From assembly GCA_965140415.1 (NCBI GenBank), contig OZ223209.1, forward strand, positions 4,032,001 through 4,096,000: a stretch of 64,000 nucleotides of DNA. The letters run 5' to 3'. Position 1 is the stretch's first letter, and each line of letters opens with the position of its first letter. Made by a program: the position numbers and the translations under genes. Source of the stretch: Myxococcota bacterium. Lineage in GTDB: Bacteria > Myxococcota_A > SURF-8. The notes beneath the pieces were generated by a model. The model was not told where the DNA came from, did no database searches, and saw only the letters and a program-made list of their open reading frames with translations. Below are positions 6,449-48,680 of this stretch, in pieces.

Positions 6449-6466
6449 ATTGTGCGAATACGATAA

Positions 6467-10815: not shown

Positions 10816-11046
10816 CCTGGTTATTGTACAATAAACTCATAATAGCACTAGAAATTCATAATAATTTTATAATATATTACTAAAATTGTCAAATATTACA
10901 TATCAATTTCGTAAATATCTACAGATCTGTTTCTGTCAGGAAACACTGGCACTGGCAAAGCGGAGCCAGAAGCCAATCTGTCAATTGGGAACTGACTGCA
11001 ATGGATAGAGAAGGATTCTGTAAAAACAGGAATGCAGCAGGAACGA

Positions 11047-11769
11047 CTACTCGTCGCGAAAACGCATTTTCAACACACCGAGCATGGCTTCGACAAAGAT
11101 TTTCTTGCTCATTTTGGATTGTCCGCGTACCCGGTCGGGAAAGACAATCGGTTTTTCAATCAGTTTTAGCCCGGCGTTATAGCAGCGATACTTGATTTCG
11201 ATCTGAAAACCGTAGCCGGAGGTTTCCAGGTTTTCCAATCCGATCGTCGCCAGGGCTTCCCTGCGGAACCCGTTGAAACCACCGGTTAAATCCTGAATGG
11301 GCGCTCCAAGTATCGTGCGGGCATAGAAACTGCCACCCCAGGAGAGGAAACGCCGGAAAGCCGACCAGTTCTCCACGCCACCACCACTCACGCGCCGCGA
11401 TCCGATGACGACGTCATATTCTTTCAAGGCTTCGACAAACTCAGGTAAATACTTGGGATTATGCGAGAAATCGGCGTCGAACTCGAAAATGTAACGGTAG
11501 TCGCGCGCCAAGGCCCATTCGAATCCGGCCAGATAAGCGCGTCCCAGTCCCTCCTTGGCGGTGCGATGCAACACCTTTACCCGCTGATCCTTTTCTGCAA
11601 GTGCATCGGCAAGTTGTCCGGTGCCGTCCGGGGAATTGTCATCGATGATCAGGATGTTTGCCAGAGCAACCTGCTCCAACACGGCTGGAACGATTTTTTC
11701 AATATTTTCTTTCTCGTTATAGGTCGGGATGCAAATCAGCGCGCCCGCCCCATTCTGCGCATTACTCAT
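11047..11769 (-). CDS. polyprenol monophosphomannose synthase (GT2)
   Basis: IPTYNEKEN, DDNSPDGTG, DADFSH, DLTGGF, GQSKMS. Confidence 0.88.
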   Translation of the reverse strand: MSNAQNGAGALICIPTYNEKENIEKIVPAVLEQVALANILIIDDNSPDGTGQLADALAEKDQRVKVLHRTAKEGLGRAYLAGFEWALARDYRYIFEFDADFSHNPKYLPEFVEALKEYDVVIGSRRVSGGGVENWSAFRRFLSWGGSFYARTILGAPIQDLTGGFNGFRREALATIGLENLETSGYGFQIEIKYRCYNAGLKLIEKPIVFPDRVRGQSKMSKKIFVEAMLGVLKMRFRDE

Positions 11770-30571: not shown

Positions 30572-30925
30572 ATGATCTATTACGCTGTCAAACTTTGTAT
30601 GTCGAACAGGACAGGTCCAACCGGATAACCCTCATACTACCAGGAGAGACAGATGTCGAAACGGACCGCTATACGTTGTTTCGACCGCAATTTTGTTTGT
30701 TCTGACATCCAAACCACGTAAGTGAAAGCACAAACAGACCTTCTTACATTGGTGGATCAGAATCTTTTACCTTCCTTACCTTTTTAATGTGGAAATGCTT
30801 GCAAATATTTCTTGACTTTTTTCTCCCAGGGAATTAAATGGTAACGCCGATGCGGGCAGTACCAATTGACTGTTCGACCAGGTTTTGTCTATGTCGCTTA
30901 TTACGACATGTTTGACAATAGATGT

Positions 30926-31000
30926 TCCCCAGTAGCTCAATGGTAGAGCGGGTGGCTGTTAACCACTAGGTTGGCGGTTCAAGTCCGTCCTGGGGAGCCA
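30926..31000 (+). tRNA. tRNA-Asn (GTT)
   Basis: TCCCCAG acceptor stem, AGCTCAATGGTAGAGC D-arm, CTGTTAA anticodon loop, GTTCAAGTCC T-arm, encoded CCA. Confidence 0.97.
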
Positions 31001-32560
31001 GTAAGAACGCAAGCCGTCGATTTCACCATCGGCGGCTTGTTTTTGTTTAGCCCCTTCCGCAGCTTCCGCAATCATATCAAAGGGTTCGCGCCATGTGGGG
31101 TGCATGCTGCCTTCCTTGAAGGAGCAGTTGCAAAGTAGCAAATTGAGCAATCGGCGCTTTTCATGACTTGATTGGCTTTTAAACAGTGATACCGCATTGT
31201 TAGCCAAGTTTAAAAGTGTCACCCCCAAATCAAGGTAGCTGTCCTCGGCGTTTTGGTGCTTGGCAATGGCCCCCATGCACTCGTCTTGCTCCTTACGCAC
31301 GCCCTCGGCCATGCCCTTGAACATATCGTCCCCAATCAGGCCACTCAGCTTGTCCTCATACATGGCGTGCAGCTTCTTTTGCAGGTTGTCGTAACGGCGT
31401 TGCAGCCGCTTAACCGCATCAGCATGGAATTCCTTCTCCGTGGAATGGCTTTCTTTGAGCGCTTCCACCACCCACCCCAAGATTTCGTCGTCAAAGTGTA
31501 GTTTGGCCAGCAAGTCCACAAACAACTTGTCCAGCACCTTTTCCCTGACGTTCCTTTCCGGGCACTTGCCTTTGGATCGATACCCGGAGCAACGGTAGTA
31601 CACGTATTTGCCTTTGTGCAGGCTGCCGCTCATGGCACCGCCGCAATGGCCGCAAGTAACCAACTGCGCATAGGCAAACTTTTTGGGGCTTTGGCGGCGG
31701 TTCGTGGTTCTGCGGTTATCCAGCACCTTTTGCACTTCGTCGTATAGCTCCTTGGGCACGATGGCTTCGTAGTTGCCTTGGTAGTATTCGCCTTTCCACT
31801 CGAAATCGCCGGTGTAAACCAGTTGCCGCAACATCTTGTGGACTTGGCTTCTGACCAGCTTTCTGTAGGGCGGTTTGCGGTTGCGCAAGCCCATGTCCGT
31901 TGCCAAATCCACGGCTTGCGAAATGCAATATTGGCCGGTGGCGACCTCTTGGTACAGCCGCAACACCAATGGGGCAGTTTCGGGATCGGGTTCGATCACG
32001 TTCTTACCGTTGACGTTGGTGACATTGCGGTAGCCGATGGGCGAGTAGCTTGGCCACATACCTTCCTTGGCCTTTTGCAGCATGCCCTTGCTGGCCTCTT
32101 CACCCAAGTTCTCACAGTAGTTCTTGGCCATCAGCACCTTGATGCCGTGAAACAGCTTCTCGCTAGAACGGCTGTCAGGGCTGATGATGGTGTTCTCTTT
32201 TACCAAGCACACGGTAAGTTTTAGGTCATCCAGCGTAACCCAATCCTTCAAGTTGCGGTACAGGCGGTCGGTTTTCTCTACCAGCACCGTTTTGCAGAAA
32301 CCGGGGCCACCCTTTTTCAGTTCTTCCGCAAGAAACGCTGTCATTTTGCCAAATTCGCTGCGCCCTGCCTGCTTCGCTGTTTCCACGTCGATGTATTGGT
32401 GCAAAATCTCCATGCCTTCGCGCTCGGCGTACTTTTCCAGCAGTTCAATCTGTGCCGGTATGCTGTAACCTTCCTTCTCCTGATCCTTGGTTGACACGCG
32501 GGCATACAGCACCGCCTTTGTTTTGCCTGCCGCAATAGTGCTTGCTTGTTTGTGGGTCAT
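30959..32560 (-). CDS. large serine recombinase 1 (integrase); C-terminus reads antisense into tRNA-Asn
   Basis: YARVST catalytic motif, DRLYR, recombinase domain, CGHCG..C zinc ribbon, coiled coil; ends WLPRTDLNRQPSG*. Confidence 0.93.
   Translation of the reverse strand: MTHKQASTIAAGKTKAVLYARVSTKDQEKEGYSIPAQIELLEKYAEREGMEILHQYIDVETAKQAGRSEFGKMTAFLAEELKKGGPGFCKTVLVEKTDRLYRNLKDWVTLDDLKLTVCLVKENTIISPDSRSSEKLFHGIKVLMAKNYCENLGEEASKGMLQKAKEGMWPSYSPIGYRNVTNVNGKNVIEPDPETAPLVLRLYQEVATGQYCISQAVDLATDMGLRNRKPPYRKLVRSQVHKMLRQLVYTGDFEWKGEYYQGNYEAIVPKELYDEVQKVLDNRRTTNRRQSPKKFAYAQLVTCGHCGGAMSGSLHKGKYVYYRCSGYRSKGKCPERNVREKVLDKLFVDLLAKLHFDDEILGWVVEALKESHSTEKEFHADAVKRLQRRYDNLQKKLHAMYEDKLSGLIGDDMFKGMAEGVRKEQDECMGAIAKHQNAEDSYLDLGVTLLNLANNAVSLFKSQSSHEKRRLLNLLLCNCSFKEGSMHPTWREPFDMIAEAAEGAKQKQAADGEIDGLRSYWLPRTDLNRQPSG
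30995..31000 (+). other. att core GAGCCA (left junction of element 1)
   Basis: Same hexamer in the same codon phase (TGG CTC, Trp-Leu) at 54189-54194. Confidence 0.75.
31011..31048 (+). terminator. tRNA terminator embedded antisense in recombinase 1
   Basis: AAGCCGTCGAT-N6-ATCGGCGGCTT followed by GTTTTTGTTT. Confidence 0.75.
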
Positions 32561-32916
32561 CTTTCGTCCTTCCCGCCTGATCGGCTGCCTGTTGCCATGC
32601 CCTGTGCGACAATAAGCATACGGAGAATTGCCGCATGGAGCAACTCGAATGTGCTTGCAATGTGCAAGCAAGCCTTCGTAACCTCGACACTTTTTGGTTT
32701 ACAGGGGTGTCTTACCTGCCGCAAAGGGTGTTGCCTTTGCTTGATTGCCACCCAACCCTGTTTGCTTGGCCATTGCCGTGTGGGGTTGACCCTTGCTTGC
32801 CAGCCTTTGGCCCCTGCATGCTGCATGGCCACGGTCCTGCAACGGCGTTGCACCGCCTTAATAGGAAGGGGGTGACTTATAGGTACGTCTAAAAACGCTG
32901 AATCGTTTTTTAGGCG

Positions 32917-33792
32917 CTATTTTGCCTTGCCGAAAATGCGCAATATCTTCCGGTTGACGTTGTGTTGTTGGCAAGCATTAGTCCCATCTTCAATGTGCCA
33001 GTATATGTGGAATGCCGCCCGCCGCACTTTGACGCGAATCCCACCGGTGACATTTTTCAGCACGATACGTCTTGTAATATGGGCGGGCGGCACATATGAG
33101 TACGGCAGCAATACTCTGCCGTGCCCATTTCTAAGAAACCATATGGTTACACCCTCAAGAAAAGCAGCTTGATAGGCGGCGTTTTTCTCTTGTCTATTGA
33201 ACGGGCCGGGCACATCCACAACATGCTTTACCTTGCTTTGCCCTTTCGTGTGGGCGCTCACGGTTGCCCGGCATACCCCAGCCTGCTCCGCGATTGTTTC
33301 CCGAGTTCGTCCAAGGATGAGTTCAGGCAGTGGGTTTCTCAACCGCTGCCGCCAGTTTTGCGGCTTCTTCGGTTGCGGATAGGCCGCCAGTGCTTGTGTG
33401 TAAAATCTGTCCAGCTTTTTAAACCAACATGGCGACACCACCCACAGTTTGAAGGTAAACACGACAAAGCTATCGGTTGGGCGGCCATGCTCGGTCCGTC
33501 TGCTCATGTTGCGCTTTGCAAGTTCGGTCGTCACCCGTAGCCATCCGAAAATATCGGCATGCGTGCCTGCCATGTTGATGCGGGCAAAACCGCCGTTTTG
33601 AAGCAGCGTCCAAATGGTGTAGGCGTCCTTGCAATGGTTGTCCTTGAGCCAAGCCAGAAATTGCTTTTTGCCAATGCGCCCTGATCCGTTGTTCAACTCC
33701 TTGTGACAGGCCGTTGCTAGCACCCATGCCCACAATTGGCGTTTTGTACCGTGGTCCACATACGGGACCACGGGAAGGTGAATAAATGTCAT
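32917..33792 (-). CDS. basic HTH-containing protein, candidate replication initiator
   Basis: RETIAEQAGVCRATVSAH HTH; ATGA-coupled to the upstream small gene; position next to the integrase. Confidence 0.5.
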   Translation of the reverse strand: MTFIHLPVVPYVDHGTKRQLWAWVLATACHKELNNGSGRIGKKQFLAWLKDNHCKDAYTIWTLLQNGGFARINMAGTHADIFGWLRVTTELAKRNMSRRTEHGRPTDSFVVFTFKLWVVSPCWFKKLDRFYTQALAAYPQPKKPQNWRQRLRNPLPELILGRTRETIAEQAGVCRATVSAHTKGQSKVKHVVDVPGPFNRQEKNAAYQAAFLEGVTIWFLRNGHGRVLLPYSYVPPAHITRRIVLKNVTGGIRVKVRRAAFHIYWHIEDGTNACQQHNVNRKILRIFGKAK

Positions 33793-34001
33793 CGCTTGTC
33801 AGCCCTGCCCTTGGCCGTGTTACTGGCTTCGGCTTCGTTCTCTTCGGCCTCTTTCGACCACTGCATGAGCACGTCGAAAAAGCCTGCAAATCGTCTGGCG
33901 ATCACGCGGCATTGCTCGTCAGATAGTTTCTGCCCCAACCGGGGTTCCCAGACCTCTCTTGTGCGCCGCATGAAGTCTGGATTTGGTTTCGTCCGTTCCA
34001 T
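33789..34001 (-). CDS. small LSR-associated protein, candidate recombination directionality factor
   Basis: 70 aa; TREVWEPRLGQKLSDEQCRVIARRFAGFFDVLMQW resembles small proteins commonly seen beside serine recombinases. RDF role is inference. Confidence 0.55.
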   Translation of the reverse strand: MERTKPNPDFMRRTREVWEPRLGQKLSDEQCRVIARRFAGFFDVLMQWSKEAEENEAEASNTAKGRADKR

Positions 34002-34103
34002 GCGTAAAGCATAGCAACCGTGCGAAATGATCGCAACGCCTAACTGGTTGTTATTGTTCCAATATTTGGCTTTTTGGCACGTTGGCAAAAAGTGAAGCTG
34101 TTT

Positions 34104-35198
34104 TTACCAATCTTCGGTGGGGGGTGATTTGCGAATGCTTTCAAGCAAAAGGGGATCGTTGCGCTTGAGAAACTCTTCGGCAAGGCTGCGGTAATGTTTG
34201 CGGTGGAAATCGGTGTCTCGGTGCTTTGGGATATTTACGTCGATATAACCCAAATGCGCCACCAACAGGGCTAGATCGTATAAATCCATCCTCGGGTATT
34301 GGCGGGCAAACAGGCGGTACAGTTCCAGCGCCTCCCAGTGTTTGCACTCTTCATTGGTGTTGGGCAGTTTGCCTTGAAGGAATTTTAGGTGCAGGTCGTC
34401 TGCTGCAATGCGGGCTTCAAGAAAAGCCATAAGCTTCTCTTGTTCCTCTAGGGCACCCTGCTCATCGTCCAAATCCTCCAAAAAGATTTCCCCACCTTCG
34501 GTGGCTGCCGGTGGTGTCCGGTGACCAGCGCCCTCTTGGGTTTCTCGGTAAGCCTGCTCGGCCTCTTCGGCGGCTTTGCGGAAAGTGGCGATCACCTTTT
34601 CCACATCTGCATTGCGCAAGCTTTCGGCTTGTTTGATAACCTGCTTTACATCGCTTTCCAGCAAATCCCAATCCACAAAGTGCTTGTGCTCAAAATAATA
34701 CCGCACATCCTGATGCGTCATTGGCCAATAGCTAGAGTCAATTTCGGCCAATAAGCGTTTGACAAGCATGTCATCGCCCATGTCCCTAGCTTTTTCAATT
34801 TTGCCCTGCATGCGCTCGTACCAGCGCGCTTTATGACCGGATGTGGTCGTTGCATGGCAAATGTTGTGGATAAGGCGGGCATCCACTTGGGCGAGTTCAA
34901 CTGGCTCGAAGTCTTCGCGGGTAACCTTCGCCCACTGGCGTTTGGTGTAGCCTGCCTCGTCAAAGTTCATCGTAATGCAGGCGGGGTCGATCAAAATGCG
35001 CTTGTTTTCCGTGTCTGTCAGGTGGGCAAACAGCTTGTATGGCCAATGCTCTTCACCCAAGAAAGCTGCCTGCCATTTGCCGTCTTCATTCCACCGGTGA
35101 AAATATCTGCGGTTGACCTCTTCAAAGCGCCATTGCAGCACGTCATAGGCGATGGCCGGGATGTTTTTGTGTGGGTATGCGGTGCTTATAGTTGCCAT
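34104..35198 (-). CDS. SprT-like domain protein with degenerate HExxH (HNICH)
   Basis: FEEVNRRYF...LIHNICHA...GHKARW. Confidence 0.55.
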   Translation of the reverse strand: MATISTAYPHKNIPAIAYDVLQWRFEEVNRRYFHRWNEDGKWQAAFLGEEHWPYKLFAHLTDTENKRILIDPACITMNFDEAGYTKRQWAKVTREDFEPVELAQVDARLIHNICHATTTSGHKARWYERMQGKIEKARDMGDDMLVKRLLAEIDSSYWPMTHQDVRYYFEHKHFVDWDLLESDVKQVIKQAESLRNADVEKVIATFRKAAEEAEQAYRETQEGAGHRTPPAATEGGEIFLEDLDDEQGALEEQEKLMAFLEARIAADDLHLKFLQGKLPNTNEECKHWEALELYRLFARQYPRMDLYDLALLVAHLGYIDVNIPKHRDTDFHRKHYRSLAEEFLKRNDPLLLESIRKSPPTEDW

Positions 35199-35199
35199 G

Positions 35200-36246
35200 T
35201 CAGTGCCGAAAGGTTTCTATCTTCGCGCTTAGGGCCGCTTCCAATTCTCCAAGCTTCGCAAAGATGTTGCGCATTTGCTCTCGGCGGGCATCGAACATGC
35301 CTTGCCTCTGTACATCAAGGTCATCAAACAATTCACGCACTCGGGTAATCCATGCCTTGTCCCGATGGTCATCGTCTTGAAACACTTCGTTGAACTGCTT
35401 TTCAAAATCACGAAAGCCCATAACGTCAAACCTGCGGCCTTCGGACAACCTGCTGTCAGTTATGACCATATCGCCTAAAGCCGCCTGCCAATCCCTGTAC
35501 AGGTTGGCCTCTCGAATGCCAAGAACCTTACAAACCTCTTGTTTATGCTCTTGTGCAAGCTCAACAGGGAAATCGCCATGCAGCTTCTTGGCTAGGTACT
35601 CGCACACGTCTTTAACCAAACATGCTTGGCCATCAGCTTCTAGGTCGTTGGGTGTCGATACGCCTGCACCATGCAAATTGCTGCGCATTAGGTTTTCCAA
35701 ACCAATGGCAAGGTCTTTTTGTGCCTTTTCATCATCTGGCAAAGATACCCCTTTGCCCACCAATGCCGTGATTTCTTCAAGGCGTTGCAGCTCAATATGT
35801 GCGCCATCCGCTAAAGCTTTCTCAAGTGCTTCAATGTGGTCTGTAATTTTGTCATTATCAGGCTTTTGCGCGGGATCGAGCAGTGCCCGTTCTCTGCGAA
35901 AAGCTCTTATCCATCCAAGCACGGCAACCAAGCGGTAAACCGTGCCATGATACTTGTACACGTGGTATGGCGTATGAGGGGCCTGAGTGCTAAGGTAAAT
36001 CTGTCTTCCGGGTTCTTCGATAATTTCCTTTAAACGCCACCGAAGCGAGCCCACAGCAGAATGCAGGGGATCGGCATACAAGCGGAAAACATCTTTTCGG
36101 TGTTGCCGGGCCTTTTCTTCTCTTTGCTGGAAATTTTCCTCTGCGCTTTTACGGTGCAAATAGACCGCACTAAGAGCACCGACAAGTGCTCCACATGTCG
36201 CGCCACAAAAAGCAAAAAGCCCCGCCGCAAATTGAGAATCCATCAT
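35200..36246 (-). CDS. hypothetical protein with N-terminal TM helix
   Basis: Long ORF tightly packed in the minus-strand cluster. Confidence 0.7.
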   Translation of the reverse strand: MMDSQFAAGLFAFCGATCGALVGALSAVYLHRKSAEENFQQREEKARQHRKDVFRLYADPLHSAVGSLRWRLKEIIEEPGRQIYLSTQAPHTPYHVYKYHGTVYRLVAVLGWIRAFRRERALLDPAQKPDNDKITDHIEALEKALADGAHIELQRLEEITALVGKGVSLPDDEKAQKDLAIGLENLMRSNLHGAGVSTPNDLEADGQACLVKDVCEYLAKKLHGDFPVELAQEHKQEVCKVLGIREANLYRDWQAALGDMVITDSRLSEGRRFDVMGFRDFEKQFNEVFQDDDHRDKAWITRVRELFDDLDVQRQGMFDARREQMRNIFAKLGELEAALSAKIETFRH

Positions 36247-36268
36247 AAGCCCCTTATGCTGCCCATAC

Positions 36269-37441
36269 CTACAGTTCTTCCTCATCCCGCATGGTAGCAA
36301 AGAACGTGTCGTCCACCTCTTCAAGCTCTAGCTGGGTTTTCTTGACGCCAAGGCCGTACTTGATAAGCATGCGCACCAACTCGTCGCCGTTTATCAGCGT
36401 AATGGGTGCCGCATTCGGGAAAAGCGCCGCCTCTTGGCAGCCCTTGGTAAAATCGCTCAGCGTTATCAGCGTGCCGCGAATGGCATTGTGGTAGGGCAAG
36501 CAGCCCCGCAACTGGTCGAGGATCGGGCGGGCAACGTTGTTTCGCTGGCGTTTGACCTGCACCACTTCGGTTACGGTGGTGATACCGAACTGCACGCTGC
36601 CCACCACGTCAATGCCCTTGTCGCCGCTTACTTTGGTGACTTCGACATCTTGGTAATCCATCGCGTCCAAGAGCGCCCCGACAAGCTCTTCAAACTTTGC
36701 GGGCGGCATGTTGTGCAGGGTTTCCCTCAGTTGGTCGCGTTGTTCGGTGTTGAACGCCTGCACCATGCGGGTGATGTCCTGCTTGGGGTTTTCGCCCTGC
36801 GGTTTGGCCGCCCCAATGTATTCATTGCCCGCATCGGTAATGCTGTAGCTGTTGCCCTCGCGCATAACAAGCCCGCGTTCCACAAGGTTGAGCAAGCGCC
36901 GCCGCAAGGTGTCAATGGTTGTGCTGGTTTTGCCAAACTTGCTGTACTTGTGCAGGTAGTCGCCCCAATCGCCCAACAGGTCGCCACGCTTGGCGCTGGG
37001 TTTTGCCGCAAGCAGGGTAAGCAGGTGGAAAATGCCTTCCTGCTCGTCAAGTTCGCGGACAATGGTTTCGTCACCAACCAGAAACGCTTCGCCATTGTCG
37101 CTTAAACTATAGACACCCGAACCATTCGTTTCCAACAGTTCGTAAAGGTTGACAAGTAGATACCCGCCATAGGCGTGGCGCGGGTTTACCTGCTTCATAC
37201 TGTCCCACCACAGGTGATTGGCCAGTTCGGCACTTACACCTCGCAAACGCTCGTGTATCCAGTCATCAGGATCGGACCAATCCACCGGCTTTTGCGGTGT
37301 GCCGGTCTGCTCGTGGATGCATTTGATCATCTCACGGATGTTTTCCTTTGGTGTACCGTGCCAGATGCGAAGCAAGTGTCGCACGGTGGTGTAGTCGGGG
37401 AACAGGGGCGAACGCACACGGTATTGGCTGGGTTTGAGCAT
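36269..37441 (-). CDS. mrr: Mrr-family type IV restriction endonuclease
   Basis: FEELVGALLDAMDY, SGDKGIDV, VVQVKR, TLSDFT, LINGDEL. Confidence 0.88.
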   Translation of the reverse strand: MLKPSQYRVRSPLFPDYTTVRHLLRIWHGTPKENIREMIKCIHEQTGTPQKPVDWSDPDDWIHERLRGVSAELANHLWWDSMKQVNPRHAYGGYLLVNLYELLETNGSGVYSLSDNGEAFLVGDETIVRELDEQEGIFHLLTLLAAKPSAKRGDLLGDWGDYLHKYSKFGKTSTTIDTLRRRLLNLVERGLVMREGNSYSITDAGNEYIGAAKPQGENPKQDITRMVQAFNTEQRDQLRETLHNMPPAKFEELVGALLDAMDYQDVEVTKVSGDKGIDVVGSVQFGITTVTEVVQVKRQRNNVARPILDQLRGCLPYHNAIRGTLITLSDFTKGCQEAALFPNAAPITLINGDELVRMLIKYGLGVKKTQLELEEVDDTFFATMRDEEEL

Positions 37442-37445
37442 GGGG
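37383..37445. repeat. direct repeat A copy 1 (mrr 5' end); copy 2 at 38681-38743
   Basis: 63 bp with 6 mismatches, counted by eye. Confidence 0.9.
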
Positions 37446-37452
37446 CTTATTC

Positions 37453-38631
37453 CTATTTTGAAAGCTTTCCGAAATGAAGCAGTGCCATAAGCATTCTATA
37501 ACCCGAGGTTGGGTGCCATTCCCTTAGGAGTTCCTCTGGATTTTCCAAAAGTAACGCGCGCAATTCGGCACGGCTCATATACCGCCAAGTGCTGAATTCA
37601 TAATCGGTTCGGGGGCTGCCGTGAAGAATTGAATCTAGCTGTTGACGTGTCAGAGAAAGCTTGATAATCACACAAAGCGCAATGTTTAGGATGTCGCCCT
37701 CAAGAAAAAGCGAAAGCAACTTGCAGTTATCCAAACTAAAATGCCCGTCCTCCTCATAAAGGCTCATTTCCTCATCTAACAAACGAGCGGTCCATTTGCC
37801 CAATATTCCATGCTTGGCAGTTCCTTTTAGGTCGTCTATTTGAATTTGCTCTTCTAGAGACGCCGCCCACTTGCCCCCATGCCATGCCATGTCTTTATTA
37901 CGGCGAACTATCAAACACAATGGGTCAGTATCTGCCGTGAAGATGATCGAATGTAAACAAAGACTGTTTGCAAATGTAACCCTTCGATCCACATATAGCT
38001 GTTGAAGTGCGGCCTCTCGCATTTCTGGGTTTGTGGCGATGAATTCGTTCGAATATCTAACCACGCTGTATTTTGTGTTTACAACTCGAAGCGTTAGCTC
38101 TTTATCACCATCAGAATATACTTTGGGCAACAACGCCAAGCATAGTTTGTCGCCATCACGCTGGAATTCATCCGCCTTATCGTCTGCATAATTGCGATAG
38201 GACTGGCTGTGCTCTTCTGGAAGGGCAAATGCCTCATTTGTGTAAAGCAGCTTGACCATGCTCAAAGGCCAACCACTAGCAGCATGCTTAACACCATCAG
38301 GGTGAATCTCAATGCTTTTTGCATTGCCGTAAATGGGGGGTCCAGGGTTGATCTCCCTAAACAATGGGTCGGTATGTTTTTCTGCAATTTCGGCAAGGAT
38401 TTCCCATGCAGTTTTTTCTCTTTTATTTTCTCTCCATGCAAAATAGACATTCTTAAATATCCAATAAATGGCTGCCATTGCTAAAAGAACAATAGCGAAA
38501 TACATTGGCTCAATTATTGGTTTATCCGGTGGGTATACGACAAAAACGACGACGGCCCCAAAAACAGCAAGCCATAATGGTAATGCTATTTTTTCCAATC
38601 TCGACATCACATAACCTTCTTTTCGAAACAT
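37453..38631 (-). CDS. 2-TM protein with NUDIX-like C-terminal domain
   Basis: Two TM helices; LIVRRN...GKWAASLEEQI...RLLDEEM resembles a divergent Nudix box. Confidence 0.55.
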   Translation of the reverse strand: MFRKEGYVMSRLEKIALPLWLAVFGAVVVFVVYPPDKPIIEPMYFAIVLLAMAAIYWIFKNVYFAWRENKREKTAWEILAEIAEKHTDPLFREINPGPPIYGNAKSIEIHPDGVKHAASGWPLSMVKLLYTNEAFALPEEHSQSYRNYADDKADEFQRDGDKLCLALLPKVYSDGDKELTLRVVNTKYSVVRYSNEFIATNPEMREAALQQLYVDRRVTFANSLCLHSIIFTADTDPLCLIVRRNKDMAWHGGKWAASLEEQIQIDDLKGTAKHGILGKWTARLLDEEMSLYEEDGHFSLDNCKLLSLFLEGDILNIALCVIIKLSLTRQQLDSILHGSPRTDYEFSTWRYMSRAELRALLLENPEELLREWHPTSGYRMLMALLHFGKLSK

Positions 38632-38643
38632 ATCATTTCCCTT

Positions 38644-38739
38644 TCACCCTTCCTCCACCAACCGCACTTTATCCATCCTTACGGTGGCATAGTCGGGGAA
38701 CAGGGTCGAACGCACGCGGTATTGACTAGGTTTGAGCAT
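38644..38739 (-). pseudogene. 31-codon chimeric mini-ORF: mrr N-terminus fused to the type IIG RM C-terminus
   Basis: MLKPSQYRVRSTLFPDYATVR-MDK-VRLVEEG*. Confidence 0.8.
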
Positions 38740-38763
38740 GGGGTGCTGTCTCGTTATTTTAGG

Positions 38764-39483
38764 TTATAGTTTCTTAATCTCTGCAACAGTTTGTTTAAAC
38801 TCACTCATAGTCTGATGAATTACACCCCCCATTCCCACAATGTAAACAATGGCTATAATGGGAAAAGCCAACTTATCGGACACGGTCTGAGGTACAAGCC
38901 AGCAGCAAACAAAAAATATCATCAGCAGTATTGCTCCGCTTAAAGCGCTATCACGCCTATTGGCTTTTATACGTTTAAGGTGTGGTTTGATTACTCTGTC
39001 CCAAATGTTGACTTTCGGATCATTCTCAAAATCTTGCGTTTTTAGTAATTGTATTCTGTTGTGAACAAGGAATGATGCAGTGAAGCACATCATGCTCATT
39101 ACCAGCAACCACGCCATAGGTGCCACCTCCAAAGCTCCGGGAGTAAGCACTGCGAAACTTAAAAATTCCACCACAGCCATAATCATTGGTAGTACCAAAT
39201 CGTCGAAATTCATACGGTAGGTTACAAGTAATGTACCACTTTGGGTTGTTAGATGAGTTACGAGAAATGAAGAAAAACTAGCCAGCCAAAACAACAATAA
39301 CAGGATATTATTATCATTTGCCATGAGTATTAATGAAAGTGTGTAGGCCGCGTATGCCAGTGAAGTGCCTTTCATTATGCCATAGGAAAACGTGTACGAG
39401 GCCCGCGTATTGTCCTTCGCCCTGCATTTCAAATCATCTTTAGATATCTGCATGCTGCACATGGCTTCAGTTTTCTCTTCCAT
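38764..39483 (-). CDS. multi-pass membrane hypothetical protein
   Basis: About 6 hydrophobic segments; AT-richer than flanking genes. Confidence 0.7.
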   Translation of the reverse strand: MEEKTEAMCSMQISKDDLKCRAKDNTRASYTFSYGIMKGTSLAYAAYTLSLILMANDNNILLLLFWLASFSSFLVTHLTTQSGTLLVTYRMNFDDLVLPMIMAVVEFLSFAVLTPGALEVAPMAWLLVMSMMCFTASFLVHNRIQLLKTQDFENDPKVNIWDRVIKPHLKRIKANRRDSALSGAILLMIFFVCCWLVPQTVSDKLAFPIIAIVYIVGMGGVIHQTMSEFKQTVAEIKKL

Positions 39484-39484
39484 T

Positions 39485-39512
39485 TTTCACCCTTCCTCCA
39501 CCAAGCGCACTT
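39485..39512. repeat. direct repeat B (type IIG gene 3' end); second copy at 38642-38669
   Basis: 28 bp with 1 mismatch. Confidence 0.9.
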
Positions 39513-42500
39513 CGGTGTCGGTGAGGCCGTACAGCTTGTAGGTCAGGGCGTTCATATCGGCTTCGGCACAGGCGATTTGCTCGTCCAGCGCTTGGATGTC
39601 GGCGTCGATTTTCACCACCTGCTTGCAAATGGCGTCGTTGTCCGTTTTGCGCAGCTTCAGCAGCAAACCCAGCAGGCGTTTGGCGTCGAACTTCTCGGTT
39701 ACGTTCGTCTGCCGCGCCTTGTGCCGCCACTGTGCCGCAATGAAGCTGGCTTCGTCGTCGTCCACGAAAATGCCCTCGATCAGCGCCGCGCCGTTTGCCA
39801 ACACGCGCAATTCGCCCATGTCGTTTTCCACCGTCAGCCGCACACCCGGTTGCAGCATGGCGTTGATGCGGTCGAAGTAGGCGGTCAGCTTCAATTCGCG
39901 TTGCAGCTTGGCCCATTCTGTCAACGCTTTGCCTTTCAACTCCGATGGCGCGGTTTTCTTAAGCGTCGCCACGGTTTCGACATCATCCCACAGCCATTTT
40001 TCGTTGCGCATTTCGTCGCTGCATTGCGGGCTGTTCAGGCGCTTGTCGATTGCAAGCTGCAAGTCGCGCCGTTTGGTGTGCAGGTCTTGCAGGTGTTTGG
40101 CCTTTTCGGCCACCTTGGCTTTGTCGTCGTCGCTGGCTTTGGGTATGGGCAGGGGGGCGATAAACTGTTTGTTTGCTTCGTAATAGCCGCCCGCCTTCGG
40201 TTTGGCAATGCGCTTGAAAATGTAATCGCAAAGCGGGGCATTCAACACACCAAGCAGAAACCAGCCGGTTTCGATATCGGTAGGTATAATGCCGTTCACC
40301 CGCACGTTGTTGAAGTAAAACGCGCCTTCGCTGTCGTAGCACACCCGCATGCCGGGCACCGTTTGCCCCACACACAGCTTGGGGATTTCCTGCTTGTCGA
40401 TGTTTTGGTGGCGGCCAAAGCGATACCATTGGTCGTCGTCAAATTTGCCCTTCTCCCGTGCTCTTAGTTCTTTTTCGTAGCTCACAAGGTAAGCCCACGC
40501 TTTGGGATATTGTTTCGCCATTTCACTGGCAGTATAAAGGTGCACTTTTCCCTTTGTCACAAGGTACGGAAAAAGCAAATGCGTGTTTGTGTTTGGTACT
40601 TCAAAGCGCTTTGCATCCGGCCCTGAAACCAGCGGGTGCATGATGGCATCTTCAATTTCCACTTCCACCGGCTCTTTATTGCCCTGTGGTTTGTGCAAGT
40701 ATCGGTTTGGGGCTATGCGCTGCAAGTGGTATATGTAATCGGCACTTGTTTGAATGCCAACCATAATGCCTTTGCAAGATTTGTTCAAACGCTTGCAGCT
40801 TGCAATCAACTTTTCATGAAGCGCCCGCTCGGTGTTGGGCATAAGCACCCAACCGTCATCTTGCGGCAATTCGGCATAAAAGGCGCTGTCTTCCACTTCT
40901 CGCCAATCCACCGCCGCAATATCCTGCTTGCCATGCGGGGCAAAGACGCACCGGATGCGGTCGTGCGGGAAGCCGGTAAAGAATTGCAGGGCGGTATAGG
41001 TAATCGCCTCGTCAAACACCTGATAGCTTTTGAAATCAATCCAGCGATCCAGCCGCCGCGTGCGCCTGAGCTTTTGCCGCAAGCCCCTGCCGTATTCGTT
41101 GACCATCCACACGTTGGGCGCGATGTAGCCCATTTTGCCCTGCGGGTTCAAGAGTTCCACGCCACGCTCGATAAAGGGCAGATACAAATCGAAGTTGCCC
41201 GTTTGCGTGCTTTCATAAAGCGGCCCGCCGCCCTCGCGCTTGGCGTTCAACAAATAGCCCGCCACGTCTTCCTGTATCTTGCGGAAGTGTTGCAGCTTTA
41301 CATAAGGCGGGTTGCCGATGACGCAATCAAAACCGCCGTTTTCGCGGTTAAACACTTCGGGGAAGGTTTCCCGCCAATCAAAGGTGTTCACGCGCTCCTG
41401 CTCGTCTTCCGAGAACATATCCCGGCTTTGCTGCACTTGGGCGTAGAAATCATGGCCGATCAGCGAATTGCCGCAACGGATGTTTTCGTCCAGCGTGGTC
41501 AACGGGCGATCCGGCAGCGCCGTATGCAGCCACAAAGCCAACCGGGTGATCTCCACCGATTCGGCGTTGATGTCCACGCCATACAGGTTTTTGGAAAGCA
41601 CCGCACGCATGGCCGCGTGGGTGTCGAACAGGCCCATGCTGCCGGTCACGCGCTCAAGCTCTTTGGCGATCCACTGGCGTTGCTCGTACAGATATTTGAA
41701 CGCCTGAATCAGAAACGCGCCCGACCCGCAAGCCGGATCGACCACCTTCAGCTCGTCCATGCGGTCGCTGTATTTGTGCAGGGCGGCTTCGTATTCCGCA
41801 ACCACCTTGTCTTTGCGCTTGTCTTGGCGGTGGGTGCTGATTTGCTCGTCGGTGACATCGGTAAACTTGTCAAAGCCAAGCTCTTTGCGAATCTCGGCCA
41901 AGCGCGCCCCAACGGTTTCCTCCACGATGTAGTGCGTCACCCATTCGGGCGTGTAGTACACACCATCGCGCTTGCGCTTGGTAAGCTCTGTCAGCGATTC
42001 GCGTCCCTCGGCATGAGCTTCCATCACTTCCAGTTCGGTAATGCTCTGCTCGAAAATGCGCCCCATAGCCGTAAGCGTCAGGGTGCGCCCGTCGCCTTCA
42101 TCCGACGCGCCGAAGTTGTACTTGGCCGACAAATACAGCAGGGTGTCGGGGTATTTCATCAGACGCTTTTCGCTCTGCCCTTGGTTCTGCCTGCAAAACA
42201 CCGTGTTGGGCAACTTAAGCGCGTCCATCTCCTTGTCTTCGGCAAACAGCCCACCGTTAAAGCGGTTGATGCGTTCCTTGCCAAAGGGCGTGCCGTCGCG
42301 CATGGATACAAACAACTGCCGGATGCGGTTCCATGCGTTGGTGCCGTTTGGGTCGTAGTATTCGTCGTTGGACACGTAAATCAGCACATCCCTGAGCACG
42401 TTTGGCGGGAAGCTAAGCTCGCGCCCCATGTCCTCGCAGTACAGGATGAAAATGCAGCGATCCATAATGCGCTGGGTAAACTTGACCAAACGCCGCAAGC

Positions 42501-43329
42501 GGCCTTCCTGCTCGTATTGCGGGTTGTGCTTGCGCAGCGCCTTGTAAATGGCTTCTCGGTAGGCGTGGTATTCCTTGTAAAACTCGTTTTCCAACGCTTC
42601 TTCATGGGTGATCTGCGCATCCAACAGCTTTTCAAGCGGGCTTTTGCCGCTGGTCGCAAGCAGGCTGTCGCGGTGGAAGGTTTTATAGAACAGAAAACGG
42701 TGGAACGCCGCGTCGGTATCGTCGCCCAAAAGCGAATGAGCCAGGTCGCCCTCGGCTGGCTTGATGACAAAGCGCTGGTATTGCGCCTTGTTGCCGTACA
42801 GGTACAGCCGGAACTCGTTCATATCCGTAACCAAGCCCCATGTGGGCAGAATGGGCGAAATCAGCCCCGTGCGGGATTCCCGCAAATAGTCGAGGCATTG
42901 GTCAACGGGCGAGCGGTCGTTGGGGCGGTTCGATTGTGGCTTGTCCAGCCCGGAGCGGTCGTCTTTGAATTCGCCCAATACCTGCGGGATTTCTTCCATG
43001 TCCGCTTGGCCGAAAAAGCCCAAGGCCAAATCGGCTTCGCCGGTGCCGCCACGCTGCCCCGCGCCTTTGACCGGGTATTGCTGTTGCAGGGTGTAACCTT
43101 CGCCTTTTACCGCTTCGCCGCTGGCCACATAGCCCCACGTCTGCTTGAAAAACACGTCAATAAACGTGCCCTCGCTGGCGGTTTCCTTCTGCCAGTCTTT
43201 TGCAGCCCAATTCTGCAAGCGGGTCAAGAGGGCTTGGGCTTCGTCGCTATCGTTAAACGCCTCAAACTCTTTCGCCCAAATCGAGCGAAGGTAGGCGGTA
43301 TTGAACAAAGGCTGATGCTTCTCAGGCAT
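39487..43329 (-). CDS. type IIG (Eco57I/TaqI-like) fused restriction-modification enzyme, N6-adenine MTase
   Basis: N-terminal ADLAL...LGEFK nuclease; RKRDGVYYTP, DPACGSGAF, IGNPPY; C-terminal TRD. Confidence 0.9.
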   Translation of the reverse strand: MPEKHQPLFNTAYLRSIWAKEFEAFNDSDEAQALLTRLQNWAAKDWQKETASEGTFIDVFFKQTWGYVASGEAVKGEGYTLQQQYPVKGAGQRGGTGEADLALGFFGQADMEEIPQVLGEFKDDRSGLDKPQSNRPNDRSPVDQCLDYLRESRTGLISPILPTWGLVTDMNEFRLYLYGNKAQYQRFVIKPAEGDLAHSLLGDDTDAAFHRFLFYKTFHRDSLLATSGKSPLEKLLDAQITHEEALENEFYKEYHAYREAIYKALRKHNPQYEQEGRLRRLVKFTQRIMDRCIFILYCEDMGRELSFPPNVLRDVLIYVSNDEYYDPNGTNAWNRIRQLFVSMRDGTPFGKERINRFNGGLFAEDKEMDALKLPNTVFCRQNQGQSEKRLMKYPDTLLYLSAKYNFGASDEGDGRTLTLTAMGRIFEQSITELEVMEAHAEGRESLTELTKRKRDGVYYTPEWVTHYIVEETVGARLAEIRKELGFDKFTDVTDEQISTHRQDKRKDKVVAEYEAALHKYSDRMDELKVVDPACGSGAFLIQAFKYLYEQRQWIAKELERVTGSMGLFDTHAAMRAVLSKNLYGVDINAESVEITRLALWLHTALPDRPLTTLDENIRCGNSLIGHDFYAQVQQSRDMFSEDEQERVNTFDWRETFPEVFNRENGGFDCVIGNPPYVKLQHFRKIQEDVAGYLLNAKREGGGPLYESTQTGNFDLYLPFIERGVELLNPQGKMGYIAPNVWMVNEYGRGLRQKLRRTRRLDRWIDFKSYQVFDEAITYTALQFFTGFPHDRIRCVFAPHGKQDIAAVDWREVEDSAFYAELPQDDGWVLMPNTERALHEKLIASCKRLNKSCKGIMVGIQTSADYIYHLQRIAPNRYLHKPQGNKEPVEVEIEDAIMHPLVSGPDAKRFEVPNTNTHLLFPYLVTKGKVHLYTASEMAKQYPKAWAYLVSYEKELRAREKGKFDDDQWYRFGRHQNIDKQEIPKLCVGQTVPGMRVCYDSEGAFYFNNVRVNGIIPTDIETGWFLLGVLNAPLCDYIFKRIAKPKAGGYYEANKQFIAPLPIPKASDDDKAKVAEKAKHLQDLHTKRRDLQLAIDKRLNSPQCSDEMRNEKWLWDDVETVATLKKTAPSELKGKALTEWAKLQRELKLTAYFDRINAMLQPGVRLTVENDMGELRVLANGAALIEGIFVDDDEASFIAAQWRHKARQTNVTEKFDAKRLLGLLLKLRKTDNDAICKQVVKIDADIQALDEQIACAEADMNALTYKLYGLTDTEVRLVEEG

Positions 43330-43505
43330 TTACACTTCTCCAAAAAGCTGGTTGAAATCGGCAAGTTGATGTGCGCAAAAAATATCACGCAGGACTTGGA
43401 ATTGCCAGATAAAATAATGTGGTCATCCCGCTATTTGCATGTTTTGCAACGGCGTATGACATATTCTGTCACATGGTCTGCTCGATTTGCCCACAGCGCA
43501 GCAAA

Positions 43506-44006
43506 TCATTTATCCCATTCAATGTCGATGGTTTCGATATCGGCTTTCTTTAGCGCTGCAATGGCATTGCTTGAGCCGCCTCTAAAGACTAGCCACACGA
43601 CTGCCTCGACATAGCCAGCTTGTAAAAGCCACCGGTCTTTTTCGATTTGCGCCCTTGTGCTTTTGTTTAGGTAAACGTAGCCGGATTTTACTTCCACCGC
43701 CAACCGCAAGGAATCGTAATACAAGTCAATCCTGCGACGACCATGCGGAGTAATGAACGTCTTCTGCTTTTGCGGCTTGTCGTCCGGTCCTATCCGCAAG
43801 CGGTCACGCAGGTTGTTGACAGTAAGCACCTCTCCCATCAATTCAAACAATTGCCCCCTTGTACGGTTCTGCAAGTTGCACATCTCCCGATAAACTTTGG
43901 GGCGAATAATGGCCGGATCAACCCCGGCATCGCGTAACACTGTTTCCATGTTCTTCTTGAAATATTGGCGACGATTGGCGGCAAGTTCTTTTTTGTACGA
44001 ATTCAT
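43506..44006 (-). CDS. PD-(D/E)xK nuclease resembling REase-fold toxin domains
   Basis: GRRRIDLY...AVEVKSGY...QIEKD...VVW. Confidence 0.6.
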   Translation of the reverse strand: MNSYKKELAANRRQYFKKNMETVLRDAGVDPAIIRPKVYREMCNLQNRTRGQLFELMGEVLTVNNLRDRLRIGPDDKPQKQKTFITPHGRRRIDLYYDSLRLAVEVKSGYVYLNKSTRAQIEKDRWLLQAGYVEAVVWLVFRGGSSNAIAALKKADIETIDIEWDK

Positions 44007-44782
44007 GGCAATATCTCCGGATCGGCCTTTAACATTTCGTCCAACCAAAGCCTTTGTTTGGACAGATCGTAAGGCGCATCGAGATCAGAAAACTGGCAAA
44101 GCTCGCTCTCACCCCATATTTTTGTCGCCGATATAATGCAACCCATCGCGTCTTGCTTAAGCTGCGTAACAGCTAACATACGCAGTACACGACCCTCAAG
44201 AAAAGGTTTCAACAGGCGCAAAAACAATGGAGCGGTAGACGCAAGTTCAGCGCAATCTACAAGAGAAGCCCAGCACCATTGCCATGAAAGTTGCCTGCCC
44301 TTGGTTTTTGTCGCTTTCAAATACGAACGCACCGAACGCAGCTTTGCAAGGCTGGTACCTTTGGCCTCGCATAACAGGTATTCATCCGTTCGGCTATTGT
44401 ATGCAACTGCATCCACGCCGTGAATATCCCACGCCAGATCATTGGCGAATATGGTCTGCCAGTTGGATAAACTCTCCAGTGCGTAATACAAACCGGCCAC
44501 TCCGCCACTTTCTTTGCTTGGATAGGCGGTTGCTGTACCATCCACCACAGGAAAATCCTCTGTTGAAAATTCCGCCGACCATGGGGTGGCTGTGTCCCCT
44601 TGGCCGTTGGTGGCATCAGGCATCAATTCTGCCAAACGTTTTGCAATAATCGCCATTTCATGCAGCGGATTAACTGCATGCGCCATTGCCGCCTTGATTT
44701 CGCTTTCCATGGCCGTCGCTGTGCTCAATAGATTTCCTAAAGGCTGTTCAAATTTTTTTGTAGGTTGCACAAGCATACCCAT
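44003..44782 (-). CDS. PD-(D/E)xK nuclease-like protein
   Basis: HGVDAVAY...LLCEAKG...KGRQLSWQW; ATGA-coupled to the downstream nuclease; start uncertain. Confidence 0.55.
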   Translation of the reverse strand: MGMLVQPTKKFEQPLGNLLSTATAMESEIKAAMAHAVNPLHEMAIIAKRLAELMPDATNGQGDTATPWSAEFSTEDFPVVDGTATAYPSKESGGVAGLYYALESLSNWQTIFANDLAWDIHGVDAVAYNSRTDEYLLCEAKGTSLAKLRSVRSYLKATKTKGRQLSWQWCWASLVDCAELASTAPLFLRLLKPFLEGRVLRMLAVTQLKQDAMGCIISATKIWGESELCQFSDLDAPYDLSKQRLWLDEMLKADPEILP

Positions 44783-44925
44783 CGAATAATAGCACACACC
44801 ATCCCTTGTCGCGCCGACAATCGGCCTGTGACGGGCGTTCGGCACCGGGCGTAGGGTTGGGCTGGCTCGGCGGGCGGCCGGGGCGAGAAACGGCGAGTCA
44901 GGGGAATTGCAGGATGCAAGGGGGG

Positions 44926-47583: not shown

Positions 47584-47882
47584 CCCCACCTCCAAAACAC
47601 CGCAAAAAACTACCGAAACGATGTGGCAACTATAAGGCATTTCAGGCAGACTGAAAAGAATAATATGCAAAGGTAATACTTTAAGTGTGCCAGAATATGT
47701 CATACCTTGCATGGTGCTGCTTTGTGGCAACAGCGCGTGAAGGGCGACACAGCCTGATTGCAGCTTGCAACTTGCAATTGCAGGCTGCAAGTTGCGGGTC
47801 GCGGGGTCTTCGCATTTTCTCGCAAGGAATGAGTTGCTCCGGGGCGCGAGGCTCCGTTAACATGGCTGCAATAGGAGGCGCG

Positions 47883-48272
47883 ATGCAATTTGATTTTGAA
47901 AAGTACACCGTTTGCCACGTTGCAGGGCCAAAGGACAGTTATTACGACTTGGCGTTACACCCCGGTTACCAGCCGGGCTTTGAAGGCAGGCCGGGCTATG
48001 AACCGCTAGTAGGTTTCTGGACACTCAGTGAAGGCGCGGGGCGGCGCATACTGGAAGTGCAGGCGGTATTGGAAGACCACCCCAAACGCTTTGTGTTTAC
48101 AGACACGCAAGGCCGCACGTTCAAGTTGCGGCCATTAACTCCCGAGCTTTACCGCAGGCATATCCGCAAAACCCTAAGCCGACCGTTTGAGCTACCCACC
48201 TACAAAGCCATCAAGAATTTCTTCCACCACGGTTTACTGCCAGACGGCACGCAACTACCCGGTTGGGATTGA
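47883..48272 (+). CDS. hypothetical protein (only plus-strand gene in element 1)
   Basis: AGGAGG RBS before MQFDFEK. Confidence 0.65.
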   Translation: MQFDFEKYTVCHVAGPKDSYYDLALHPGYQPGFEGRPGYEPLVGFWTLSEGAGRRILEVQAVLEDHPKRFVFTDTQGRTFKLRPLTPELYRRHIRKTLSRPFELPTYKAIKNFFHHGLLPDGTQLPGWD

Positions 48273-48680
48273 GTCAGCACACCCGCAAAACGGCGGTTTT
48301 CAAGGGTGCAAGCGGTTGCGGCGCTCACCGCCTGCCAGCACGCCAACGTTTTGCAACTGAAAAGTCGCGTTTTAAGCCCTTCGGAATGACCGATCCATAC
48401 CAACCCATATCCCGTGCCAACAAAATGCAACAGCGGACCATTCTCGCGGCGAGAGTGATATGTCTGTGCTGGGTCTGTGCTAGGTCTTTGCCCCATAATC
48501 GCTCACACCCGCTCCATTACTGGCTGTAAGCGTCGAAAACCGCCGTTTTGGTGCGACTATGCGCGGGCTTTTTAGGCAGCGAAAGTTGATTGCCGCAAAC
48601 GGGTAGGTTGGCGTGCCGGTAAACCGTCTGCAAAACCATGCGGCAGGTGCAGCCTGCCATTAGCCCGTTAGGGCTTTTCA

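Follow-up and report, generated by a model that had tools for sequence, protein, structure and literature searches.

A junction scar between two cargo genes of a Myxococcota defence operon probably records a single additive recombination event

Introduction

How do unrelated genes come to stand between two restriction genes of a bacterial defence operon, and what does the joint between them record? Gene gain by defence islands, between their systems as well as inside them, is known, and the joints that would reveal such gains are rarely preserved. We analysed a 64,000-nt stretch of DNA from a Myxococcota bacterium (contig OZ223209.1 of assembly GCA_965140415.1, forward-strand positions 4,032,001 to 4,096,000; hereafter the window, numbered from its first letter). 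In it, a type IIG restriction-modification (RM) gene and an mrr gene enclose two cargo genes, X and Y, and one such joint is kept to the base: X and Y are separated by a chimeric scar that combines the start of an mrr gene with the end of an IIG gene. We conclude, with a probability of about two in three, that a single additive recombination event took place at a variable, sharply bounded position of this operon. The joint would show how a diverged allele was added: through one imprecise join, anchored by the ends of the flanking genes themselves.

The chimeric junction

All of the genes lie on the minus strand, and their transcription order is IIG, X, a 31-codon open reading frame (ORF), Y and mrr. 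The parts of the locus are given below in that order, where L001 denotes the one orthologous locus to which the window is compared in the following section.

39487-43329, minus strand: type IIG RM gene, 1280 aa (Pfam, PADLOC, NPPY motif)
39485-39512, minus strand: 3′ end of the IIG gene (last 8 codons, TGA and 2 nt), outer copy of a 28-nt repeat, holding the GGAGGA that precedes the start of X (repeat search)
38764-39483, minus strand: gene X, 239 aa, polytopic membrane protein (ORF list, hydrophobic segments)
38681-38743, minus strand: mrr 5′ stub from an allele with 90% identity to the resident start, made up of 4 upstream nt and the opening 59 nt of the gene
38670-38680, minus strand: 11-nt filler at the putative illegitimate joint, unique in the window
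38644-38739, minus strand: 31-codon chimeric ORF (ORF list)
38642-38669, minus strand: IIG 3′ stub, inner copy of the 28-nt repeat, carrying a G variant shared with L001
37453-38631, minus strand: gene Y, 392 aa, two N-terminal transmembrane (TM) helices and a predicted NUDIX fold (ORF, family, structure prediction and fold search)
37383-37445, minus strand: start of the resident mrr, outer copy of a 63-nt repeat (repeat search, alignment)
36269-37441, minus strand: mrr, Mrr-family type IV restriction gene, 390 aa, PADLOC candidate PDC-S02 (Pfam, PADLOC)

The IIG protein matches Pfam Eco57I (4.1e-43; 147.9 bits against a cut-off of 25.3), MmeI_Mtase (6.6e-16; 58.7 bits) and N6_Mtase, and falls slightly below the cut-off for TaqI_C (24.5 versus 26.5). 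It aligns with the PADLOC model REase_MTase_IIG over residues 97-1278 (1125.7 bits; model positions 2-1179 of 1182), and the NPPY methyltransferase motif is visible in its translation. By these matches, the gene is classed as one encoding a predicted single-polypeptide type IIG RM enzyme with a nuclease part, an Eco57I/MmeI-type N6-adenine methyltransferase and a specificity domain. The mrr product matches Pfam Mrr_cat (2.6e-26; 92.5 bits, cut-off 21) and PADLOC PDC-S02 (555.9 bits; residues 6-386 on model positions 3-384 of 390). It has at least 890 relatives, and residues D274, D278, E292, Q295 and K297 of its PD-(D/E)xK nuclease domain are invariant in 33 aligned sequences.

Two direct repeats make up the scar and tie it to the flanking genes: a 63-nt repeat (37383-37445 versus 38681-38743; 90% identity, 6 mismatches) and a 28-nt repeat (38642-38669 versus 39485-39512; 96% identity, 1 mismatch). 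Each is present in exactly 2 copies in the 64-kb window with 3 mismatches tolerated, while dinucleotide-preserving shuffles (n = 100) gave a mean repeat count of 0.00 and none reached 2. Perfect matching extends over at most 16 nt within the mrr repeat and 20 nt within the IIG repeat. No other repeat family in the 9-kb region exceeds 37 nt or 83% identity, save three 16-nt families.

Read in the direction of transcription, the scar is a 102-nt chimera of 63 nt from the mrr 5′ end, the 11-nt filler and 28 nt from the IIG 3′ end, the last part comprising about the final 25 nt of the IIG gene, including its TGA, plus 2 nt. The product of the 31-codon ORF would consist of Mrr residues 1-20 (with P12T and T18A), RMDK and then VRLVEEG, the last seven residues of IIG, ending at the IIG stop. 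An earlier, sequence-only reading of this DNA had proposed the same gene order and scar parts (63-bp mrr 5′ copy, 11 bp, 28-bp IIG 3′ copy), and these proved correct to the base. The in-frame 31-codon ORF that it described was found at 38644-38739 on the minus strand, and its claim that each cargo gene sits between IIG-end and mrr-start sequences is borne out by the repeats and alignments.

Compared with the resident mrr, the mrr stub has 6 substitutions in 63 nt (4 synonymous), and over 61 nt it is 88.5% identical to the mrr of L001. Because it has diverged similarly from the resident gene and from L001, the stub appears to be a third allele with its own divergence, as opposed to a fresh copy of the resident gene. 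This divergence therefore argues against an in-situ duplication; it favours an origin in a related lineage, whose DNA either carried a different cargo in or encountered one here. The proposal that two alleles were stacked fits these observations, since X and Y are mutually unrelated (E > 2) and the stub departs from the resident mrr by as much as alleles of separate lineages do. Residue P12 of Mrr is invariant in 33/33 aligned family members, and the stub encodes T there; because a threonine replaces this invariant proline, constraint on the stub ORF seems relaxed, which suggests a decaying fragment.

The 11-nt filler has no second copy in the 64-kb window, and a filler without a source points to an imprecise, end-joining-like joint, not to a microhomology joint. 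That it might be a variant IIG tail was ruled out: 0/43 IIG relatives end in this way, and 43/43 keep the usual C-terminal L-Y-x-L-T...V-E motif. The inner IIG stub has a G, as in L001, while the end of the intact IIG gene has a C, which hints that Y may be the older resident and X the newcomer.

An orthologous locus with a different cargo gene

Loci carrying Mrr relatives were collected by scanning genome contigs with a 33-sequence Mrr alignment, and the best 80 of 207 loci were taken. Using tblastn with the window's proteins, we found an orthologous IIG gene in 1 of these 80 Mrr loci, namely L001, which belongs to a Myxococcota metagenome-assembled genome (MAG). Protein identity to the window is 83% for IIG and 89% for Mrr. 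The gap between the two genes of L001 holds a single gene, Z (7994-8995; 333 aa), which encodes hydrophobic segments, matched no family and is unrelated to either X or Y (E > 2). L001 has no stub.

DNA homology between the window and L001 stops 4 nt past the IIG stop (window position 39483) and restarts 11 nt before the mrr ATG (window position 37452). The GC content is 0.56 for IIG and mrr versus 0.41 for X, 0.44 for Y and 0.48 for Z. As judged from these borders and compositions, the IIG-mrr gap is a sharply bounded site that appears to receive foreign genes. The sequence-only reading had called it a variable slot; this holds in so far as L001 carries one different cargo at the same position, and its generality depends on one orthologous comparison.

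Identity to L001 changes along the locus. The upstream island (46000-43200) is 98-100% identical in a sliding profile; the gene for an ATPase of PADLOC candidate family PDC-S06 and the next two genes, of unknown family (280 aa and 180 aa), likewise share 98-100% DNA identity with L001, and the island was therefore apparently shared very recently. The N-terminal and methyltransferase parts of IIG are 93-98% identical and its C-terminal 0.7 kb is 89-94% identical, while the cargo shows no similarity. Two segments within the flanking genes have much lower identity than their surroundings:

~40200-41400, minus strand: IIG target-recognition segment, ~1.2 kb, 46-70% identical to L001, with flanks at 89-98%
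~37050-37441, minus strand: segment encoding the Mrr N-terminal domain, the first ~400 nt of mrr, 73-76% identical to L001, with the rest of mrr at 94-98%

For 40979-40467, blastn gives no alignment between the window and L001, and the whole IIG segment looks like a specificity-domain swap between otherwise near-identical enzymes. The mrr 5′ segment is, by its identity profile, a putative recombination tract going with the cargo. Because the profile is mosaic, the recombination tracts would end inside the flanking genes; such mosaic flanks would be expected for allelic replacement by homologous crossovers, not for site-specific insertion. The same neighbourhood would then also show exchange of the IIG target-recognition part and of the Mrr N-terminal domain.

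The N-terminal part of Mrr is the presumed DNA-recognition domain, and the remainder is catalytic. The mrr remnants of loci L026 and L027 (9001-9279) show the same split in protein identity (72% for residues 95-187 versus 93% for residues 186-389).

Differences between the two loci continue beyond mrr. The gene directly 3′ of mrr in the window (35200-36324) encodes a protein of 348-374 aa with one TM segment, and its counterpart in L001 (10173-10868) encodes a different protein of 231 aa with some four hydrophobic segments. The gene after that (34104-35198 in the window) is conserved, with 43% protein identity to L001. In this comparison, the position 3′ of mrr is apparently a second variable position, again holding membrane proteins.

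Origin of the junction

What sequence of events would leave such a scar? Judging from the mosaic flanks, one cargo allele would normally replace another through homologous crossovers in the conserved flanking genes, and the gap would be a hot spot of gene replacement. In the event proposed here, the exchange would have been additive: DNA from a relative diverged by ~10% would have joined on one side by a homologous crossover and on the other side illegitimately, with mrr codon 20 fused via the 11-nt filler to a point 25 nt before the IIG stop. The illegitimate side could have formed by homology-facilitated illegitimate recombination of linear DNA, or else by Campbell-type integration of an illegitimately closed circle through the homology of the IIG end or the mrr start. 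A linear fragment and a closed circle yield the identical product, IIG-X-stub-Y-mrr. The mark of additive displacement is seen in the stubs, which are kept at donor-level divergence (mrr 90% and IIG 96% identical to the resident copies).

Several points weigh against this reading. Variability of the slot is seen in n = 1 orthologous IIG-mrr locus and in looser analogues, and no single-cargo allele, IIG-X-mrr or IIG-Y-mrr, was found among the 80 Mrr loci. X has no relative, and the best relative of Y is 37-39% identical. The joint contains an 11-nt filler where classical homology-facilitated illegitimate recombination has a microhomology of a few bases, and it fits end-joining better. The sole hint as to which cargo was the resident and which the newcomer is one nucleotide, the G of the inner stub. 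The structure is known from the assembly alone. Finally, the putative defence role of X and Y is assigned from their position alone, and no PADLOC model matches either of them.

Other histories could also be proposed. An in-situ tandem duplication running from the IIG end up to the start of mrr, with one cargo copy later replaced, would give exactly this topology, a unit end joined to a unit start. We nevertheless consider it very unlikely, as X and Y share no similarity, the mrr-start copies differ at 6/63 nt in a mostly synonymous manner, like alleles of different lineages, and the replacement of one cargo copy would need crossovers within 28-63 nt of inner homology. An assembly artefact that merged strain variants IIG-X-mrr and IIG-Y-mrr might be suspected, since the related records are MAGs. 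However, the joint (a cut mrr, 11 unique nt and a cut IIG) is present in neither putative parent, a collapse of alleles would not make it, and the gene is listed on a 5,975,757-nt contig in the protein collection; judged from the structure of the joint, an artefact is unlikely, and we give it very little credence. A third view is that IIG, X, Y and Mrr form one functional system of nuclease-controlled membrane effectors, similar to PrrC and EcoprrI, in which the two-cargo state was selected and the stub is a by-product. Consistent with this, the genes share the same strand with minimal spacing and no internal terminators, and all five variable genes adjoining mrr in the window and L001 (X, Y, Z, a gene labelled D1 and the 231-aa gene of L001) encode hydrophobic segments. 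PrrC within EcoprrI, the classic functional case, provides a precedent (bioRxiv 10.1101/2024.01.29.577857; PMC12707154). On the other hand, the cargo genes are mutually unrelated, Mrr across the family usually follows an RM gene without cargo between them, and an IIG with 46% identity, encoded on a Methylocystis plasmid, lacks an adjoining mrr. We regard a single functional system as improbable.

The sequence-only reading had interpreted the repeats as a working system for excision, exchange and amplification. In such a dedicated, recombinase-independent cassette slot, the IIG end and mrr start would travel with the cargo as homology arms, stacking, excision and exchange would be recurrent and selected, and the stub ORF would be kept for translational coupling. 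The same pair of sequences brackets both cargo genes, the gap content differs between the window and L001, and the junction is in frame, ending at the IIG stop, which lies 12 nt ahead of the first Y ATG. Moreover, few parts of either family are as well conserved as Mrr residues 1-20 and the IIG C-terminal motif, which would make natural anchors. Yet a second mrr 5′ copy is found in 0/76 other Mrr loci, where the sole match is a 16-nt chance one; the same test recovers the stub of the window, and L001 is without a stub. The repeats are imperfect, with 90% identity over 63 nt and 96% over 28 nt and no uninterrupted match longer than 16 and 20 nt, respectively, and they are short for RecA-dependent exchange. 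The stub has lost an invariant proline, an in-frame joint arises by chance one time in three, and the 11-nt filler marks an imprecise event. We found no integrase adjoining the cargo and no tyrosine recombinase among the ORFs scanned; the only recombinases found were large serine recombinases, ~3.6 kb and ~10.8 kb from the IIG-mrr block, which probably mobilise whole islands. As for attC-like borders, 0/23 inverted-repeat pairs in 33000-42000 bracket X or Y. With 0/76 loci, short imperfect repeats and no flanking recombinase or attC-like site, the claim of a working exchange system is not supported, and a dedicated slot is unlikely. The direct repeats could rarely delete X or Y, and nothing indicates a dedicated mechanism for doing so. 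If this doubtful reading were true, the locus would be a stackable, resolvable and recombinase-free slot, in which membrane effectors such as the NUDT22-like Y are swapped as back-up modules controlled by both nucleases. The in-frame stub ORF would then keep translation flowing into the downstream cargo, and the two-cargo state would be a bet-hedging intermediate able to revert to either single-cargo allele.

A single additive recombination event, the history that we favour, could leave both cargo genes open to expression from the operon. A scan of 33500-48500 found 11 promoter-like sites versus 12.6 expected from shuffles and 17 terminator-like sites versus 22.7 expected, with none in the intergenic gaps of the slot, as would suit a single operon. 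Before Y, the part of the stub that derives from IIG recreates the stop and the purine-rich ribosome-binding context found before X. It is plausible, from this arrangement, that both cargo genes can still be expressed from the operon, with continued expression of Y and some translational coupling.

The cargo genes

Gene X encodes 5-6 hydrophobic segments. A word-based search of 5.8 billion proteins returned X alone; no family scored above cut-off in Pfam, PADLOC or NCBIfam, and tblastn gave no match in plasmids or phages. In a protein atlas, its neighbours were only unnamed clusters, with recognition below a useful level, and its single-sequence AlphaFold2 (AF2) model has a predicted local distance difference test score (pLDDT) of 46.5, too poor for a fold search. 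X is, on these results, a predicted polytopic membrane ORFan.

Gene Y encodes two N-terminal hydrophobic (TM) helices, and its database gene model (P0122) starts at the second ATG, at 38607. Its family has 317 representatives at E ≤ 1e-3, of which the best non-self members are 37-39% identical. The relatives of Y gave no matches in plasmids or phages, and a hidden Markov model of the family, run over 5,843 ORFs (81 loci plus the window), detected no member but Y. The Pfam NUDIX model is not significant for Y; its best value is 7.8e-4, in 3/50 family members.

The fold of Y is better recognized from its predicted structure. The AF2 model (pLDDT 90.3; predicted template-modelling score, pTM, 0.85) has human NUDT22 as its top Foldseek match (E 1.4e-15; target TM-score 0.67-0.72), with 290-309 aligned columns to PDB entries 5lou, 5lf9 and 5lor (E 1.4e-15 to 1e-13). 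There were 110 PDB matches at E ≤ 0.001, and the 50 listed all belong to the NUDIX superfamily, including isopentenyl diphosphate isomerases. The label of a TM-anchored NUDIX protein, given to Y by the sequence-only reading, thus agrees with the two TM helices, the confident model and the NUDT22 match, and is upheld at the level of the fold.

Y resembles NUDT22 in having the two-domain NUDIX fold, and its family keeps R-x-L-x-E-E-L-G-L with an invariant R and EE. It differs in that sequence identity is 15-17% and that Y adds two N-terminal TM helices. The canonical Nudix box reads GX5EX7REUXEEXGU. In a 50-sequence alignment of the Y family, R275, E279 and E280 of the consensus are invariant; Y itself reads RLLDEEMSL, and the stretch from the upstream part of the box to the R is longer than in the canonical box. 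Catalytic competence of Y is plausible, according to the model and these residues. A helix-turn-helix (HTH) Pfam domain, HTH_31 or HTH_3, occurs in 3/50 Y-family members (alignment rows 23, 31 and 45). By domain content, the family has predicted alternative architectures alongside the TM-anchored form.

The wider Mrr family

We compared the genes that precede mrr across the family in an upstream scan of 66 upstream ORFs from 50 loci, plus L001 and L047, which together make 52 of the 80 loci and leave 28 unscanned. The nearest or second-nearest co-directional upstream ORF is an RM or bacteriophage exclusion (BREX) gene in at least 23 of the 80 Mrr loci:

HsdR-type gene upstream: L003, L021, L022, L032, L059, L061, L062, L065, L073 and L079
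HsdS upstream: L013
HsdM upstream: L078
Type ISP gene upstream: L008 and L042
MmeI-like IIG upstream: L051
BrxL upstream: L006 and L014
Type III Res-like gene upstream: L038
RM gene upstream, with one further gene before mrr: L001, L007, L009, L047 and L080

Among the loci with an extra gene, L007 has an Eco57I-type IIG plus a defence-type ABC/AAA ATPase, and L047 (Mrr 71% identical) has a different RM gene end (Type_ISP_C) with a 328-aa gene of unknown family upstream of mrr. As far as gene order can tell, this Mrr family is a frequent 3′ companion of predicted DNA-modification systems, and the junction before mrr sometimes holds an extra gene.

Two kinds of candidate were set aside. L026 and L027 were rejected as further IIG-mrr loci, being frameshifted mrr remnants flanked by insertion sequences (IS). 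At 8300-11500, these two contigs of one Myxococcota MAG carry the same 5′-truncated, frameshifted remnant with transposase-like ORFs on its flanks, with identical match statistics, as if a repeated segment with IS at its borders carried it. The best IIG match on a plasmid, from Methylocystis with 46% identity, has a ParB-like gene behind it and no mrr alongside.

Other upstream neighbours of Mrr relatives were observed as well. A cobW/yjiA-like gene precedes a 390-aa-type Mrr relative in seven enterobacterial loci (L035, L036, L039, L043, L048, L050 and L057). In L078, a TIR-domain protein and then HsdM are encoded just upstream of the Mrr relative (6397-8925), and in L031 the corresponding position (670-2439) encodes an HEPN(Swt1)-SNF2-TumE fusion.

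Relation to known systems

The locus belongs to known kinds, those of embedded defence genes and of displacement scars. Extra defence genes embedded in RM, BREX, DISARM and Hma operons are described by Payne et al. (bioRxiv 10.1101/2024.01.29.577857). The present locus is alike in having extra, variable, co-oriented genes nested between DNA-modification-based defence genes, and the PADLOC PDC candidates, represented here by the PDC-S02 Mrr and the upstream PDC-S06 ATPase, stem from the same embedding approach. Unlike those cases, the cargo lies between two separate single-gene defences and not inside one multi-gene system. By the logic of guilt by embedding, X and Y are co-oriented between IIG and PDC-S02, which are strictly two systems. 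The main text of that preprint has 0 occurrences of "type IIG", "Mrr" or "recombination" and gives no insertion mechanism, whereas a junction scar survives in the DNA analysed here.

In Vibrio type VI secretion system (T6SS) clusters and in Rhs loci, modules are described as being displaced additively, with stubs and orphan modules left behind, and homology-facilitated illegitimate recombination is given as the cause (PMC5361080). There, as here, the incoming module of a T6SS, Rhs or contact-dependent inhibition array is anchored by a conserved gene, is added and not swapped, and leaves a stub of the conserved gene, with the old module pushed downstream by the incoming one. The likeness to what is described there has limits: our locus is a defence operon without toxin-immunity logic, the event is single (0/76 related loci), and an 11-nt filler takes the place of the reported microhomology.

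The enteric immigration control region, bounded by yjiA and yjiN (PMC12707154), offers another comparison: defence content there also varies between conserved flanks and is exchanged by recombination in those flanks. The seven enterobacterial Mrr loci with a cobW/yjiA-type upstream gene match the boundary given in that paper. Unlike in anchor-bounded hot spots, our locus is anchored by the closing codons of one defence gene and the opening codons of a second one, with a single gene as the variable unit. The P2/P4 hot spots are defence hot spots of the same anchor-bounded kind. Like integron cassettes, X and Y are single promoterless genes in one orientation, stacked and expressed from upstream; unlike them, they have no adjacent tyrosine integrase or attC-like inverted repeats, and the repeats are the coding ends of the flanking genes.

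An open-access keyword search found no paper on a junction scar inside a defence operon and none on NUDT22-like or TM-NUDIX proteins in phage defence, neither of which is proof of absence. The locus offers a concrete, testable example of how embedding may arise; as a single instance, it is an instructive case and not a new class of system. From their position alone, X and Y are most likely independent embedded defence or abortive-infection candidates. The analysis nominates the ORFan membrane protein X and the ~300-member family of putative membrane-anchored, NUDT22-like NUDIX proteins as candidates for phage defence.

Neighbouring genes

A tRNA-Asn gene (30926-31000) abuts one of the large serine recombinase genes (30959-32671), and the second recombinase gene lies at 54090-55838. 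No 14-mer from 30900-31080 recurs within the 64-kb window, which thus offers no att repeat of the tRNA-Asn gene by which to delimit the island.

The full order of this co-directional operon, which is placed on a genomic island, is the PDC-S06 ATPase, two genes of unknown family, the type IIG RM gene, the cargo, Mrr/PDC-S02 and then further variable genes. The 954-aa ABC/SMC-like ATPase (44926-47790) matches the PDC-S06 model with 732 bits. An open frame of 992 aa runs antisense to the IIG gene on the plus strand (40636-43614) and is most likely a by-product of codon bias in this GC-rich gene, and not a gene itself.

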